Below are positions 50,326 to 55,845 of a DNA stretch of 64,000 nucleotides, piece after piece. The stretch is from Candidatus Eiseniibacteriota bacterium (lineage in GTDB: Bacteria; Eisenbacteria; RBG-16-71-46; JABDJR01). The stretch lies in the NCBI GenBank assembly GCA_963762255.1, contig CAVXKA010000002.1:640001-704000 (forward strand), given 5' to 3'. Below the pieces are notes generated by a model, which worked only from the letters and a program-made list of their open reading frames with translations, was not told the origin of the DNA and searched no databases. Every line of letters begins with the position of its first letter. The first letter of the stretch is position 1. Both the position numbers and the translations under genes were made by a program.

Positions 50326-51470
50326 CCCGTCACGATTCCAAGCACCATTACCTTGCCGGGCCCCGCATCCAACCGCAAGCCATCCGCGGCGGCATGACGG
50401 TGGACACGCTCATCGACGAGACGTTCCTGGCCTACAACGCGGGGCGCATCCAGACCGCGGCGCGGCTCCTGGTCGAGAAGGGACTGCACGCGGACACGAC
50501 GATGGGGCTCTCGCTGGCCGGAGCCATGAGCCCGGCGGGGGTGACGCTTTCGACCATCATCCCGCTCGTGCAGGCGGGGTTCATCGACTGGATCGTCTCC
50601 ACGGGGGCGAATCTCTACCACGATGCGCATTTCGGGCTGGGGCTGGCGCTTCACCGAGGCAGCCACACCCTCGACGACCGTCAGCTCTTCGAGGCGGGGG
50701 TGATTCGCATCTACGACGTCCTCTTCGACTACGAGGTCCTGCTCAAGACCGACGCCTTCATCCGCGAGGTGATGAAGAACCCCGAGTTCAAACGCACGAT
50801 GGGCACCGCGGAGTTCCACCACTTGCTCGGCAAGCACCTCGCCGCGCGTGAGGAAGCGCTGGGGCTCAAGGACACGTGCCTCCTGACCGTCGCCTACCGC
50901 TGCGGCGTGCCGTGCTACGTCTCGTCGCCCGGGGATTCCTCGATCGGCATGAACGTGGCCGAGATGGCGATCCGCGGCGAGGGCCCGGTGATCGACGTGA
51001 GTCGCGACGTCAACGAGACGGCGGCCATCGTCTACGATGCCAAGAAGCACGGGAAGAGCGCGGTGCTGCTCCTGGGCGGCGGCTCACCCAAGAACTTCGT
51101 ACTGCAGACCGAGCCGCAGATCCAGGAAGTGCTGGGATTGCCGGAGAAGGGGCACGACTACTTCATTCAGGTGACGGACGCGCGGCCCGACACAGGCGGG
51201 CTTTCGGGGGCGACGCCCTCCGAGGCGGTCTCGTGGGGCAAGATCGATCCGTCCCAACTCCCCGACACGGTCGTCATCTACTCCGACACCACGATCGCGG
51301 CGCCGCTCCTGGCCGCCTACATGCTGAGTCGGCACGAGCCGCGCCCCTTGAAGCGGCTCTACGACCGCCGCGATGCGATCTACGGGCGATTGCGCGAGGA
51401 CTTCCTGTCAGCTCGGCGCGAGCCGGAGGACATTCGCGGCACACGCGACGAGGTGCGCCCGGGCGGTTAG
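50322..51470 (+). CDS. Deoxyhypusine synthase-like protein (probable homospermidine synthesis)
   Basis: [44 protein letters not shown]; GGAGG RBS; ATGA overlap. Confidence 0.9.
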
Positions 51471-51503
51471 CCGCTCGGTCTGGACGACGCCGAGACGAGT
51501 CTT

Positions 51504-54161
51504 CTACTTCGCCTCGAAACGACCCTGGAAGAAACGCAGCTTGTCCGGCTCGTACACGAACGTGAGTCCCTTGAGACTCTCCCGCCGGGCGTAGACCCGC
51601 TGAATCCCCTCGGCGATCCCCCGCATGTGGTCGTTGGTGTAGACCCGGCGAGGAATCGTGAGGCGAACCAATTCCAGGGCGGGGCGGTAGTTTTGGCCCG
51701 TCTGCGGGTTCCGGCCCTTGGAGACGTTGCCGCGCTCCATGGCCCGCACCCCGGTCTCGACGTAGATCTCGGCCGCAAGTCGCTGAGCCGGGTACTCGTC
51801 CTGATCGATATGGGGCAGAAATCTCTTGGCATCGATGAAAATCGCATGCGTTCCCGCGGGGACGACGATCGGAACCCCGGCCTCTTGCAGGAGCTGCCCC
51901 AGATAGTGGGTTTGCTGCACGCGGGACCGGATGTACCGATCGTCCAGCATCTCCTCGATTCCGCGGTTGATGGCTGCGAGGTCCGCGGTGGCCAGCCCCC
52001 CGTCGGTGACGTTCCCCTCATAGATCCGCAGCAACTCCAACGCCTTGTCCGCCCATGCCTGATTGTCCCGGAAGGCGAGGAGGCCGCCGATGTTGATGAG
52101 GAAGTCCTTCTTCCCGCTCACCGTGCAGCCGTCTCCGTAGAGCATCATCTCCCGCACGATGTCTCGGATCTTCACCCCGCGGTAGCGAGGATCCCGATTC
52201 TGGATCATGTACGCATTCTCGACGAACCGGGTGGCATCGAAGAAGATCGGGATGCCGAGCGCGCTGCAGTACTCGTACACCTCCTTCATGTTGTCCATGC
52301 TGACCGGCTGGCCGCCGGCCATGTTCACCGAGTGCTCGAAGGAGATATAGGAGACCTTCTCCGCCCCGTGCTCGTCGACCACTGCGCGGAGCTTCTGCAG
52401 ATCGATGTTCCCCTTCCAGGGGAATTCGCTCTGGGTGTCATGGGCCTCGTCCACGATGATGTCGACGAAGACGCCCCCCGCCAGTTCCTGATGAAGCTTG
52501 GTCGTGGTGAAGTACATGTTTCCCGGCACCCATTGCCGATCCTTGATCATGACCTGGCTCAGGATGTGTTCGGCCGCCCGCCCCTGGTGGGTGGGAATGA
52601 TGAACTGGTACCCGAGAACATCCTGAAGCGTCGCGGTCAGGCGGTGGTACTCGTCGCTGGACGTGGCGCTCGCTCGCGCGCCGTCGTAGGCCGCCCACTG
52701 ATCGGTGCTCATGGCCGTGGTCCCGGAGTCGGTCAGGAGATCGATGGAGACGTCTCCGGAGCGAAGCAGGAACGTGTTGTACCCCGCCTCTCGAATCGCC
52801 CGCTCGCGCTGGTCCCGGGCGAGAACTCCGACCCTCTCCATGGTGTGGATCTGGTAGGGCAGGGTATCGAATTCGAAGGACCGGAGGTTCGGGAAGACCC
52901 AGTGGTAGTGCATCTGGTCCCGCCAGGCTCCACCCGCGATCTCCTGAAGACCCGCCACCTGGTCGCACTGCCCCTGCAAGGCAACGATCGCATCGGCCAC
53001 CTGATCGAGCTGCGCGTTGGTCATGGCCAACCGAGGAATCTGAACCGGCACCAGCCGGTCCTTGCCGACCAGACCGGTGGCCACCGCGCGAACTCCGGAG
53101 AGCAGATAGAGCGCGGCCGAGAACGTGTCCTGCTGGTGCTCGGTGATGTGCGGCAGGAATTCATCGGCCCGGATGTAGGCCCCGTCGCACCCCCGCTCCA
53201 GAGGGACGCCCGCATCCCGGAGCCTCTGTGTGAAGCGTTCCGTCTGGTGCATGACCCAGTGAACTTCACCCTCGTCGCACATCTCCTGGATCCCGCGGGC
53301 GAGAACTTCCATGGTCCGGCCGGCCATCCCCCCGTAGGTGTGCAGGCCCTCGTAGACCACGACCTCGTTCATGAACTTCTCGTGCACGTCGGGGTCGTCG
53401 GTCGTGAGAATGCCCCCGGTGTTGCACTTGGGATCCTGGGCTCCGTCCATCTGGAAGACATCGGTGGTCTTTACGATCTGCTTCACGATCTCGGCGACAG
53501 GCCTGTCGGCCTGGCCCGGCTCGTGGTGCTGGATGTACCAAGCGTTCTCGATCACCCGGGAACCGTCGCAGATGACGAGCTTCCCGTGCTTGGCCGCGGC
53601 TGCCTTCACCGCCCGCAGGTTGGCGAGGCTGAAGGGGTGCCGCCCGTCGGCGAACGCCTGAAGCCCGACGAAGGCCACGTTCCCCTGCTTGAGAACTCCC
53701 TCCAGTCGTCCCAGGTCGACGTTCCCGGTGAACACCGGCTCCTCGGTGTCCCGCACGTCCGGGTACTGAACGTTCAGCGGTCTGAACACGTCCAGCCGCG
53801 AGCGCGCGTTGCTTGGCACGGCGGACCCGGCCGGCACCAGGGTCGACACCACCAGCTTCACGCAGCCCAGCACGTTGTGAGTGGGACAGACGTACCCGTG
53901 CCCGAGAACGTCCTTCACCGCCCTCTCGAGCGATTCGAAATTGCGGGAGCCCGCGTAAGCCTCGTCGCCGATCAACTGACCGGAGAGCTGCTCCTGACTG
54001 AACGCGCTGGTTCCCAGCGAGCACATGTCGAAGTTGACCTGGGTCGGGGTCAGATGCCAGACGTTGAATCGGGCCCGGGAGAGATACTTCTTGCGCTCTT
54101 CCAGCGTGGGGAAGGAGAGAAGCCGGACCGTCTTGATCTTGTGGGGCTCGTGCGTGACCAT
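51504..54161 (-). CDS. tpl: Tandem-duplicated tyrosine phenol-lyase (885 aa)
   Basis: C-half: DLLTDSGT, THQGR, GNMYFTTT, DATR, SGKKD, MERG, RLTIPRR, LRFF (TPL-type); N-half is a divergent second copy; AAAGGA RBS. Confidence 0.9.
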   Translation of the reverse strand: MVTHEPHKIKTVRLLSFPTLEERKKYLSRARFNVWHLTPTQVNFDMCSLGTSAFSQEQLSGQLIGDEAYAGSRNFESLERAVKDVLGHGYVCPTHNVLGCVKLVVSTLVPAGSAVPSNARSRLDVFRPLNVQYPDVRDTEEPVFTGNVDLGRLEGVLKQGNVAFVGLQAFADGRHPFSLANLRAVKAAAAKHGKLVICDGSRVIENAWYIQHHEPGQADRPVAEIVKQIVKTTDVFQMDGAQDPKCNTGGILTTDDPDVHEKFMNEVVVYEGLHTYGGMAGRTMEVLARGIQEMCDEGEVHWVMHQTERFTQRLRDAGVPLERGCDGAYIRADEFLPHITEHQQDTFSAALYLLSGVRAVATGLVGKDRLVPVQIPRLAMTNAQLDQVADAIVALQGQCDQVAGLQEIAGGAWRDQMHYHWVFPNLRSFEFDTLPYQIHTMERVGVLARDQRERAIREAGYNTFLLRSGDVSIDLLTDSGTTAMSTDQWAAYDGARASATSSDEYHRLTATLQDVLGYQFIIPTHQGRAAEHILSQVMIKDRQWVPGNMYFTTTKLHQELAGGVFVDIIVDEAHDTQSEFPWKGNIDLQKLRAVVDEHGAEKVSYISFEHSVNMAGGQPVSMDNMKEVYEYCSALGIPIFFDATRFVENAYMIQNRDPRYRGVKIRDIVREMMLYGDGCTVSGKKDFLINIGGLLAFRDNQAWADKALELLRIYEGNVTDGGLATADLAAINRGIEEMLDDRYIRSRVQQTHYLGQLLQEAGVPIVVPAGTHAIFIDAKRFLPHIDQDEYPAQRLAAEIYVETGVRAMERGNVSKGRNPQTGQNYRPALELVRLTIPRRVYTNDHMRGIAEGIQRVYARRESLKGLTFVYEPDKLRFFQGRFEAK

Positions 54162-54328
54162 GCTCGTTCCTTTGGAGAGATCCGATTCCGAGCGCGACCC
54201 GTCGATTAGAGCGGAAGGGGGCTCCGCCGGGCAAGAGGGTAAGAGATCATTCCCAAAATGTATCGCCGCGGACTTCCGGTATTTCGGGTTACTTGCCCAA
54301 CCGGCGAGCCCGGACGCGATCGACATCG

Positions 54329-54361
54329 CGAGGGGGGGTCGGATTCCCCGATCCCCCCTCG
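54329..54361 (-). terminator. 14-bp GC-rich hairpin after the 54388-55845 gene
   Basis: CGAGGGGGGGTCGG-ATTCC-CCGATCCCCCCTCG, one non-Watson-Crick position; no U-tract. Confidence 0.45.
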
Positions 54362-54387
54362 AACGGACAGTTCCCCGATAGGCTCGA

Positions 54388-55845
54388 TCAGCGCATGAGT
54401 AGGAGCTTCCGGGTGAGCTTCTCCCCCGCCACCTCCAGGCGGTAGAAATAGATCCCCGACGGCATGGAGTCCGGCGACGTCGCATCGAGCGTCACCCGCT
54501 GCAAGCCGGGTTCCATCGGCGCGTTCACGATGACCCTCACCAACCGGCCCTGCACGTCGAAGAGGCTCAGGCGGACGGGCACTGTAGCTGCCCCGTCCTT
54601 CGCCGCGGGAACCTGGAACGAAATCTCCGTGCTCCGGGTGAACGGGTTCGGCGAGTTCTGGAGAAGTCTCGGAGTCGGCGAGAGGTCGCCGTCATCCAGA
54701 CCGCCCTGGCCGGTCGGGAAGATCTTGAATCCCTCGGGGGCGCGCGTCTGCAGTGTCGCCATCACGATGCCCCTGCTGGGGATGTTCCAAGTGAGGTTGG
54801 CCCCCGAGAAATAGGGCTCGTTCACCACCGGATTGATCGAGAGCAGCGGGTCGATGGGCACGCCGAGGGGAATCACATTCCCGTAGTCACTTATCGCCCA
54901 TGCGTCCCCGGTGAAGACGTCGATGACGGCGAAATCCAGCAGGACCCCCGCAGGCACACAGGTCGAGTACACGCCGGGAGCGGGATCTAGACCATCCGAG
55001 AAATCCCATGCGCCCTCGTCGGTCATGAAGCCAAGCCTCAGCACTTCGGGCGCGGCCATCAGCTCGACGGTAATTGTCACCCAGGTGCAATCTGGCTTGA
55101 ACTCCTCCGGCCAGCCGGTGCCGCCAAAGACCGGCATGACATTGAAGTTCTGCTTCTCATCCTTGGCCCTGTAGGGCTTGTACGAATGGCCGTTCGTGAT
55201 GTTCCTGATCTTCTGCTGCTTGTCGGCCTCGGTGAACGACCGATTGTCCTGAGCTCTCTGGCTTGCAGGCACGAGGGTTCCGTCACAGTTGACGTCCCCG
55301 GGATTCCTCGAATGGCCGGCTCCGCGAAGGATGTGATCGAGTTCGTGCGCGGCATTCTCCCCGATCGCATTGGAGCGGGCGGTCGAGTTGCTGAACCACG
55401 TCGAGACGTTCGGATCCGCGGTGAACTCTCCACCGTAGATGTTGGCCGTAGTGCTCCAGGCCTCCCCCCACACCAATCCATCCCCGGTCACGGTATCCCG
55501 ATCCGGAGTGATATTGAGCTGGTGATAGGACCCCGTCGTCGGCTTGACCGTCGTGAAGTTGATGAGCGTGGAGGCGAAGCCGTACTTGCTCTTCAGCGTC
55601 TCCATGACCATGCCTCGCTCGGTCGCGTTCAGCCAGTTGGACTGCATGCTCACATAGACGGTGATGACCGCACCGGTGCCCGGCTGGAGCATCATCCGGT
55701 CGGAGCGGGAGAGAGGAACAGGCGGCGAGAACCCGGGGGCGGGGCCGGACCACGCGGGGTCACGTCGACCCAGGTCGGCCGTCGCCGGAGCCGCGAGAAG
55801 GACGAGGGCGAGAGGGATCAGCAGGGCGATCGCGAACCAACGCAT
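54388..55845 (-). CDS. Secreted zincin-like metalloprotein with FlgD-Ig/T9SS-like tail
   Basis: Signal peptide; NAAHELDHILRGAGH; QNSPNPF..T.I.F..LFDVQGRLVR..SGIYFYRL tail. Confidence 0.75.
   Translation of the reverse strand: MRWFAIALLIPLALVLLAAPATADLGRRDPAWSGPAPGFSPPVPLSRSDRMMLQPGTGAVITVYVSMQSNWLNATERGMVMETLKSKYGFASTLINFTTVKPTTGSYHQLNITPDRDTVTGDGLVWGEAWSTTANIYGGEFTADPNVSTWFSNSTARSNAIGENAAHELDHILRGAGHSRNPGDVNCDGTLVPASQRAQDNRSFTEADKQQKIRNITNGHSYKPYRAKDEKQNFNVMPVFGGTGWPEEFKPDCTWVTITVELMAAPEVLRLGFMTDEGAWDFSDGLDPAPGVYSTCVPAGVLLDFAVIDVFTGDAWAISDYGNVIPLGVPIDPLLSINPVVNEPYFSGANLTWNIPSRGIVMATLQTRAPEGFKIFPTGQGGLDDGDLSPTPRLLQNSPNPFTRSTEISFQVPAAKDGAATVPVRLSLFDVQGRLVRVIVNAPMEPGLQRVTLDATSPDSMPSGIYFYRLEVAGEKLTRKLLLMR

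Follow-up and report, generated by a model that had tools for sequence, protein, structure and literature searches.

Tyrosine phenol-lyase (TPL), an industrial catalyst for L-3,4-dihydroxyphenylalanine, is a tetramer of two catalytic dimers, with subunits of about 51 kDa that carry one pyridoxal phosphate (PLP) each (PMC10170061). As far as its account of the mechanism goes, the same source assigns PLP binding to Lys257, the role of general acid to Tyr71 and that of general base to Arg381, with Thr124 and Phe448/449 acting on the substrate (PMC10170061). An ordinary TPL may be pictured as two identical subunits with two sites, each made of a subunit's own PLP pocket and a few residues of its partner. 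In TPL a monovalent cation is bound by Glu69 jointly with the partner's Gly52 and Asn262, a point of general background on which our literature search returned no paper. Here we describe a gene, encoding the protein P0001, in which two TPL-like domains are fused in tandem; it lies in a stretch of 64,000 nucleotides (nt) of Candidatus Eiseniibacteriota bacterium DNA (contig CAVXKA010000002.1, positions 640,001-704,000), hereafter the window. The two domains have lost complementary parts of the shared active site, and the residue pattern together with a predicted interface makes it likely that the product is a single-chain pseudo-heterodimer of the TPL/tryptophanase family that has one composite active site and probably cleaves tyrosine.

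Tryptophanase, TnaA (1ax4, 2c44), has the same fold, belongs to the same family and is, like TPL, a textbook PLP enzyme. In the Escherichia coli enzyme, Tyr74 and Tyr307 of one subunit bond to the PLP phosphate of the neighbour and a Y74F change leaves negligible activity; activity is also lost in the cold, as the PLP-dependent contacts of the catalytic dimer weaken (PMC2770544). As far as that description reaches, these partner tyrosines support a cross-subunit logic of the active site. Judging from motif position (GDEAYAG and xYGG), they would be the counterparts of TPL Tyr71 and Tyr291, an equivalence that is our own.

Pairs of unequal homologues that build one site are known elsewhere. In serine palmitoyltransferase (SPT), the lysine-bearing subunit pairs with a homologous partner, LCB1, that has no such lysine. 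In the AdoMetDC-prozyme and deoxyhypusine synthase pairs of trypanosomatids, a dead or impaired paralogue builds or activates an interface site; unlike the fused lyase, these eukaryotic pairs are separate polypeptides with other folds and cofactors. SPT LCB1/LCB2 is, like the lyase, a pseudo-pair of PLP fold-type I, and its subunits are described as fused into a single gene in most EhV (coccolithovirus) genomes (PMC5371807, citing Han et al. 2006). It differs in belonging to the alpha-oxoamine synthase family (only PF01212 is found here), in its chemistry, in being membrane-associated and in being eukaryotic or viral. The present gene has the marks of a single-chain pseudo-heterodimer, in which a domain with the lysine would have its site completed by a homologous domain without it, in both its sequence pattern and its predicted interface; the likeness to SPT is one of functional analogy only.

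TPL-like domains also occur inside larger proteins. The Beta_elim_lyase domains of polyketide synthases and nonribosomal peptide synthetases (the thiocysteine lyase SH domain, 9cen, and LnmJ) have Tyr71 and Arg381 changed, according to the portion of PMC3870968 that deals with them. Unlike the fused lyase, they are single domains in an assembly line, show no tandem reciprocal loss and are distant in sequence (E 6e-24). Two very long proteins among our matches, P0169 (3002 amino acids, aa) and P0186 (1552 aa), carry single TPL-like domains and are presumably assembly-line proteins like 9cen.

A previous reading made from the letters of the DNA (the sequence-only reading) had stated that no description of this architecture was known. 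Our literature search, which left subscription journals largely outside and did not extend to supplements, likewise turned up no description of a fused or tandem TPL or tryptophanase. The closest precedent for a single-chain lyase with reciprocal loss is, by analogy, SPT in another fold-type I family.

Domain architecture and reciprocal loss

The translated gene matched the Pfam family PF01212 (Beta_elim_lyase) in two stretches (323.9 bits; cut-off 27), and both halves aligned to solved TPLs, the C-half at E 8.6e-163 (1c7g, chain residues 4-454 aligned) and the N-half at about E 1e-59; aligned with one another, the halves share 27% identity (E 2e-44). The gene holds two TPL-like copies, as the sequence-only reading had proposed. 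The linker between them stands in for the last ~17 residues of the TPL domain, including Phe448/449, and is followed by the N-terminal strand of the C-half; some of its columns (Trp, Arg, Asp and Tyr) are conserved at 95% or more in close homologues. The minus-strand open reading frame (ORF) that stops at 51504 stays open up to 54485. The ATG at 54161 was favoured because it is preceded by AAAGGAA, causes no clash with the upstream gene and gives a product of 885 aa and about 97 kDa, a length shared exactly by 60 of the 121 fused proteins described below, query included. A 993-aa ORF from 54485 was rejected, as its start would run into the upstream gene, which ends at 54388.

Citrobacter TPL numbering was taken from the printed 1tpl alignment, in which Glu69, Tyr71, Lys257, Met288, Tyr291, Arg381 and Arg404 map as the sequence-only reading had placed them; all of its motif coordinates also agreed with ours after conversion of residues to window positions (Table 1). 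The C-half keeps the same-subunit residues for PLP and substrate and has lost those that act across the subunit interface in TPL (Glu69, Tyr71 and Tyr291). The N-half is the mirror image, as had been claimed: the lent residues are kept, and Lys257, Gln98-Gly99-Arg100 and Arg381 are lost. To these losses we add those of Arg404 (to Pro), Phe123 (to Ser) and Thr124 (to Arg). A TPL-type PLP pocket is present in the C-half only (Lys685, Asp642, Arg528, Ser682 and Arg833), and the N-half carries Gln, Asp, Leu, Asp and Pro at those positions. The canonical placing of the PLP site and Tyr71 on the same subunit is not seen here, Tyr71 and Tyr291 occurring only in the Lys-less N-half.

The pattern was followed in a close set of 121 fused proteins, i.e. 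the query and 120 homologues with full-length identities to it of 74% or more. In the N-half, Glu67, Tyr69, Leu273 and Tyr276 are present in 121/121, as is Gln242 at the lysine position. The C-half is invariant at Lys685, Gln526, Gly527, Arg528, Phe551, Thr552, Asp642, Arg645, Ser682, Met808, Arg810, Arg833, Phe877 and Phe878 (121/121 each). At the Tyr71 position of the C-half (498) there is Ser in 100, Cys in 14, Thr in 6 and Gly in 1, never Tyr; the Glu69 position (496) holds Arg in 112, Lys in 7 and Leu in 2, and the Tyr291 position holds Asp in all 121. Taken as sets, the same-subunit residues of the C-half are invariant at 22/22 positions and its lent residues at 1/8, against a C-half background of 35%; in the N-half the lent set is invariant at 7/8 positions and the same-subunit set at 4/14, against a background of 21.5%. 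This invariance fits the selection that a composite-site model would lead one to expect, and a reciprocal pattern fixed in every member of the set is far beyond chance.

A deep set was obtained by an exhaustive HMMER search with the N-half as query against 1.84 billion cluster representatives. It gave 12 full-length two-domain rows, namely P0001 and 11 representatives at 31-36% identity to the N-half, and fragments were matched as well. GDE(A/T)YAG and the xYGG tyrosine are found in the N-half of 12/12 rows, and SxKKD and QGR in the C-half of 12/12; the C-half has Tyr291 in none. An aligned Tyr71 is present in the C-half of 2/12 (P0134 and P0138), with an ambiguous nearby Tyr in P0127 and P0140, and an aligned Lys257 in the N-half of 5/12. 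The invariant columns of a 36-row alignment (A1) are the same elements, among them the Glu and Tyr of the N-half GDEAYAG motif and the HQGR and Arg404 of the C-half. Conservation of the N-half tyrosine had been set beforehand as a refuting test of the sequence-only reading; Tyr69 proved to be kept throughout both sets.

Table 1. Positions in the window of the fused gene and its motifs, followed by the state of TPL residues in each half
Feature	Position	Strand	Remark
Whole gene, tandem TPL-like fusion P0001	51504..54161	-	885 codons + stop
N-half, residues 1-433, degenerate TPL-like domain	52863..54161	-	No PLP lysine; cross-interface residues kept
C-half, residues 434-885, near-canonical TPL-like domain with PLP site	51507..52862	-	
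Linker, ~residues 408-434	52860..52940	-	N-half alignment to TPL stops near residue 407
N-half GDEAYAG, residues 65-71	53949..53969	-	Glu67 = TPL Glu69; Tyr69 = TPL Tyr71 (general acid)
GDEAY part of the N-half motif, residues 65-69	53955-53969	-	
N-half HNVL, residues 95-98 (THNVLG = 94-99)	53868..53879	-	Replaces HQGR; phosphate-binding Gln98, Gly99, Arg100 lost
N-half DGAQD, residues 239-243	53433..53447	-	Replaces SGKKD; Lys257 to Gln242
N-half EGLHTYGG, residues 271-278 (YEGLHTYGG = 270-278)	53328..53351	-	Leu273 = Met288; Tyr276 = Tyr291; second cross-interface loop
N-half RAVATG, residues 358-363			Counterpart of C-half AMERG
C-half GARASAT, residues 494-500	52662..52682	-	Replaces GDEAYAG; Glu69 to Arg496, Tyr71 to Ser498
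C-half HQGR, residues 525-528 (THQGRA = 524-529)	52578..52589	-	PLP phosphate site; 121/121; invariant in A1
C-half SGKKD, residues 682-686	52104..52118	-	Lys685 = PLP lysine 257; 121/121; 12/12 deep lineages
C-half EGNVTDGG, residues 715-722 (YEGNVTDGG = 714-722)	51996..52019	-	Met288 to Asn717, Tyr291 to Asp720
C-half AMERG, residues 807-811	51729..51743	-	Met808 = Met379, Arg810 = Arg381; 121/121
C-half Arg833 = Arg404 (substrate carboxylate)	51663..51665	-	121/121; invariant in A1
C-half LRFFQG, residues 875-880	51522..51539	-	Phe877, Phe878 = Phe448, Phe449; 121/121
TPL Glu69			C-half Arg496; N-half Glu67 (kept)
TPL Tyr71			C-half Ser498; N-half Tyr69 (kept)
TPL Gln98-Gly99-Arg100			C-half kept; N-half Asn-Val-Leu
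TPL Phe123, Thr124			C-half kept; N-half Ser, Arg
TPL Asp214, Arg217			C-half kept; N-half Asp199, Arg202 (kept)
TPL Ser254			C-half kept; N-half Asp239
TPL Lys256, Lys257			C-half kept; N-half Ala, Gln
TPL Met288			C-half Asn717; N-half Leu273
TPL Tyr291			C-half Asp720; N-half Tyr276 (kept)
TPL Met379			C-half kept; N-half Val
TPL Arg381			C-half kept; N-half Thr
TPL Arg404			C-half kept; N-half Pro
TPL Phe448/449			C-half kept; N-half tail replaced by linker

Predicted pairing of the halves and candidate reaction

The whole chain was modelled with AlphaFold2 on alignment A1, giving a mean predicted local distance difference test (pLDDT) of 87.9 and a predicted template modelling score (pTM) of 0.76. 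Foldseek against the PDB placed the C-half on 1c7g_A with a target template modelling (TM) score of 0.97 at 54% identity (query TM 0.51 at best), and returned only single-domain TPL or tryptophanase chains, with no solved chain spanning both halves. A complex prediction of C-half, N-half and PLP, in which the halves were treated as separate chains, reached an ipSAE interface score of 0.91, the best of three controls scoring 0.00; the 0.91 mark is met by 58/80 solved complexes and 2/110 mismatched pairs. Contacts agreed between runs to at least 96%, and partner pLDDT was 92 or higher. In this model, Thr477 of the C-half (TPL Thr49) contacts Tyr69 of the N-half; Gly480, residue 481 and Asn690 (Gly480 and Asn690 being TPL Gly52 and Asn262) contact N-half Glu67; C-half residues 714-716 contact Leu98 and residue 722 contacts Asn96. 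As regards the structural check proposed by the sequence-only reading, the predicted interface puts Tyr69 and Glu67 at the C-half pocket by way of Thr477, Gly480 and Asn690. The predicted contacts of Glu67 with Gly480 and Asn690 would fit the role of Glu69 as a cation ligand from the partner subunit. The predicted interface is a confident one and is of the two-fold, catalytic-dimer type, which speaks of likeness rather than of binding.

The C-half resembles TPL of Citrobacter freundii and Erwinia herbicola (1tpl, 2ez1, 1c7g), to which it aligns end to end and whose catalytic dimer the predicted interface recalls; it is unlike them in that TPL is a homotetramer and the present protein consists of two diverged, fused copies, each lacking part of the shared site. 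In the arrangement that we favour, the C-half would bind PLP through Lys685 and supply the tyrosine-type substrate residues Thr552, Arg810, Arg833, Phe877 and Phe878. The N-half, presumably unable to bind PLP or the amino-acid carboxylate, would complete the pocket of the C-half with its general acid Tyr69, with Glu67 and with the loop from Leu273 to Tyr276. The pair's other site would be dead from both sides, so that one PLP and one active site per chain would be expected; an architecture with one live site is quite probable. Both the single PLP of each chain and the meeting of the two halves inside the same chain, not across two chains, are inferred here. The likely reaction would be the conversion of L-tyrosine to phenol, pyruvate and ammonium. 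An enzyme of this kind would offer a natural test of cis versus trans residues, in which a trans change such as Y69F can be made without altering the cis half at the same time, and a covalently linked catalytic dimer might be a more stable biocatalyst.

Several points weigh against this reading. The C-half alone falls below the cut-off of TIGR02618, the TPL equivalog model, and the whole protein passes it only by summing two domains. Leu, not Met, is lent at the Met288 position. The same-subunit and lent residue sets were partly chosen on general background, and the relatives are not independent, so that counts of 121/121 inflate the support, a fairer sample being the 12 deep lineages. The complex score may reflect memory of solved TPL dimers, and its alignment was supplied by the analysis itself. 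Finally, neighbouring genes offer no functional hint.

As regards the substrate, TIGR02618 (cut-off 720.7) is the best-scoring model for the C-half at 633.5, with the N-half at 250.6 and the whole protein at 879.1, the sum of the two domains. The tryptophanase subfamily model NF009709/PRK13238 (cut-off 285) is exceeded by the C-half (562.9) and narrowly missed by the N-half (281.4). The TnaA equivalogs TIGR02617 and NF053783 (cut-offs 825.8 and 750) lie above the whole protein (627.9 and 672.9) and above the C-half alone (434.8 and 456.9). The C-half being below the TIGR02618 cut-off, the tyrosine assignment rests on specificity residues and not on a curated threshold: the tyrosine-specific Thr124, Arg381 and Phe448/449 correspond to C-half Thr552, Arg810, Phe877 and Phe878. 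On this sequence evidence, we lean towards tyrosine cleavage by the fused enzyme.

The same genome carries a canonical standalone 455-aa gene of tryptophanase type (L002:1390-2757, minus strand, i.e. contig C3 ~724154-725521). It has GDEAYAG, QGR, SAKKD and Tyr291, and among NCBIfam models it scores best on that of the tryptophanase subfamily, at 685.2 bits; at the positions of TPL Thr124 and Arg381 it has Asp and Ile. The fused C-half is unlike tryptophanase in having Thr and Arg there, and in its lower TnaA scores. With this gene present, the organism has a normal homo-oligomeric lyase and a fused one.

The live site may act instead on another beta-substituted amino acid, on a tyrosine derivative or in a synthetic direction, and we hold this to be the most serious rival, although an unlikely one. 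Aromatic amino-acid lyase paralogues have diverged in this genome, as the standalone gene attests; the C-half misses the TPL threshold and is lent a Leu at Met288; the N-half has no Phe448/449 tail of its own, and the linker may give the pocket a different entrance. Against this, all the tyrosine-specific residues named in the literature, together with Met379, are invariant in the C-half in 121/121, TIGR02618 ranks first among the models for it, and C-halves nest with standalone proteins having the same residues (P0146 and P0150; P0184 and P0178 are also in the clade, their residues not tabulated). The Leu at Met288 occurs in standalone P0146 as well. The sequence-only reading had taken LHT in place of MPS (positions 288-290) as a change of specificity linked to the fusion; this part falls, EGLHTYGG being found also in the standalone P0146 and P0148.

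A second rival concerns the N-half pocket, which the sequence-only reading had suggested might have become regulatory or ligand-binding. In this version, the dead pocket would hold an effector, or PLP bound non-covalently, and regulate the live site across the interface. Pocket residues are fixed in the close clade (Asn96, Asp199, Arg202 and Gln242 in 121/121, Asp243 in 120/121), C-half Arg496 (Arg in 112 and Lys in 7 of 121) takes the place from which a Glu69 would face the cation site of the N-half, and the N-half is under clear purifying selection, with a mean identity of 75%. Among the eight deep lineages of class I (defined below), however, the pocket residues differ: the Lys257 position reads Q, D, Q, Q, Q, E, E, K; that of Arg100 L, R, Y, I, R, R, R, R; that of Arg217 R, Y, N, H, Q, R, G, S; and that of Arg404 P, A, P, N, A, G, F, Y. 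The N-half pocket positions are, moreover, invariant at only 4/14 in the close set, near the N-half background. This variation argues against a family-wide regulatory site, so that the suggestion found no support and we consider it improbable. Its boldest form, a stepwise ratchet from class II to class I that ended, in the window's clade, with a dead pocket binding an effector or non-covalent PLP and controlling the live site, is a long shot. Were it true, this would be a natural allosteric single-chain TPL with control across the pseudo-two-fold interface, where fixed pocket residues face C-half Arg496.

Slightly less probable still is assembly of the composite site between chains, the N-half of one chain meeting the C-half of another in a domain-swapped dimer or polymer. 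The complex prediction, with halves as separate chains, is blind to this distinction, and higher assemblies are to be expected, since in canonical TPL, according to PMC10170061, N-terminal arms interlock two catalytic dimers into a tetramer. The single-chain AlphaFold2 model, on the other hand, is confident overall (pTM 0.76), suggesting a defined packing within the chain; the linker of ~27 residues is partly conserved, and the fusion would bring no obvious gain if the halves paired between chains.

Distribution and probable history of the fusion

At least 120 further fused protein clusters of 866-925 aa were found in several data sources, labelled Eisenbacteria, Gemmatimonadota, Acidobacteriota and Myxococcales. 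They are named only 'tryptophanase' or 'tyrosine phenol-lyase', names that hide the architecture and would lead to double counting of active sites. In contigs taken from one genome per species, 38 related loci were found, mostly in Gemmatimonadota metagenome-assembled genomes (MAGs), with three from Planctomycetota and one each from Myxococcales, Thermoanaerobaculia and Deltaproteobacteria. In 31 of these loci the ORF is uninterrupted, is 881 aa or longer and contains GDExYAG and SxKKD once each; three run off the contig, and four (L014, L039, L043 and L042) are frameshifted with the halves still adjacent. The search for double Beta_elim_lyase proteins of ~880 aa with the same reciprocal pattern, which the sequence-only reading had recommended, was in this way successful. 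Three of the four frameshifted loci come from MAGs of one isolate-name series (MFD), and their indels may be sequencing errors rather than signs of pseudogenes.

In a 151-genome sample of the window's phylum, 26 genomes, including the window's own, have an N-half-type match of at least 57% identity, and in nine further genomes the only matches are of the standalone type, at 35-40%. In the remaining members of the window's own family, too, only the standalone type was seen. A same-class genome has a 37%-identity match within a 951-aa open frame (G051:C69:7876-9132), which may be another fused form. A soil-metagenome contig of 3121 nt covers positions 51886-54161 with 95 differences and no gaps, crossing the junction. 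Sequencing runs were scanned for sampled words, and the highest share was 0.33. The fused form is common among uncultured bacteria of soils and sediments, all genomes that carry it being uncultured. That the fusion is an artefact of assembly or annotation, or a decaying pseudogene, to which the frameshifts in 4/38 loci might point, is hardly conceivable given the further clusters from several sources, the intact loci (with three others merely off contig), the independent contig spanning the junction without gaps and the purifying selection on both halves.

P0122 (455 aa, 63% identical) was considered as a free N-half and rejected; its tail matches the C-half start, and it is therefore a contig-end fragment. 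No free-standing N-half type was seen among the matches of the N-half search, in which other short high-identity matches were not checked singly and no search was aimed at shorter proteins.

A tree was made by a quick LG+G4 search, in which N-half branches are long and compositionally odd. The fragments P0122, P0123 and P0130 were left out; of the 54 single-domain representatives (440-480 aa), the first 28 were included and the other 26 omitted. Support is given as the Shimodaira-Hasegawa-like approximate likelihood ratio test (SH-aLRT). Class I comprises P0001, P0125, P0126, P0127, P0131, P0133, P0136 and P0140. Its C-halves form one clade (97), nested in a clade (99) with standalone proteins, of which P0146 and P0150 carry TPL-type residues; its N-halves form one clade too (98). 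In either clade P0001 pairs with P0126, and P0127 joins next: the class I halves evolved together. The N-halves of class I have lost Lys257 in 7/8 and Arg404 in 8/8. The C-halves of class II (P0134, P0135, P0137 and P0138) group with standalone P0148 (96). In this class Lys257 and Arg404 are kept in 4/4 N-halves, so that both halves have the lysine and Arg404; the C-half has lost Tyr291 and carries Val or Leu for Arg381.

The two classes suggest, without amounting to proof, an order of events in which the C-half loses its lent residues first and the N-half pocket decays later. The likely history would then begin with fusion, followed by the loss of lent residues from the C-half and by decay of the N-half pocket so crippled. 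Class II proteins may be intermediates with two PLP pockets or may stem from an independent fusion with another substrate. Together the classes form a graded series for how fusion and reciprocal degeneration become irreversible. The tree was used for no conclusion on one versus two fusion events, nor on duplication versus fusion of paralogues. The sequence-only reading had derived the composite site from duplication, fusion and reciprocal loss. Of these, fusion and reciprocal loss hold, and the composite site is supported by conservation, cross-subunit literature and predicted interface; duplication is not shown. In the tree C-halves nest in a standalone TPL-like clade and N-halves form a separate, long-branched one. 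Duplication with fast evolution of the N-half and fusion of two paralogues cannot be told apart.

Neighbouring genes and transcripts

In the window, the gene is surrounded by genes for an M28 peptidase, a GT2 protein, an AAA_28 protein, a deoxyhypusine synthase-like protein, a Por_Secre_tail protein and a PMT_2 protein, none of which was found by tblastn next to the gene in the 38 related loci. All-against-all clustering of ORFs over these loci gave no operon partner, spurious high-GC ORFs dominating the result, and neighbours are shared only among close relatives, in at most 12/38 loci. A promoter and terminator scan of 51300-54500 found none.

Metatranscriptome run X16 was considered as evidence of transcription and rejected. 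Its contigs of 81-268 nt, some with 0-3 differences, have a word share of 0.06 and fall in conserved segments, and DNA carry-over is possible. Contigs of 81-99 nt with 0-3 differences lie around the PLP-lysine region (52068-52148 and nearby) and are too short and conserved to show transcription.

The deoxyhypusine synthase-like gene (50334-51470, plus strand; PF01916, 234.5 bits) runs towards the lyase gene and stops 33 bases short of its 3' end; nothing was found to link the two, and they are not adjacent in relatives. Immediately upstream of the lyase gene, 226 bases away and also on the minus strand, a gene at 54388-55845 encodes a predicted secreted protein of 485 aa that has a weak match to Por_Secre_tail, a type IX secretion system (T9SS) sorting domain (21.3 bits; cut-off 27), and no Pfam match in its remaining part.

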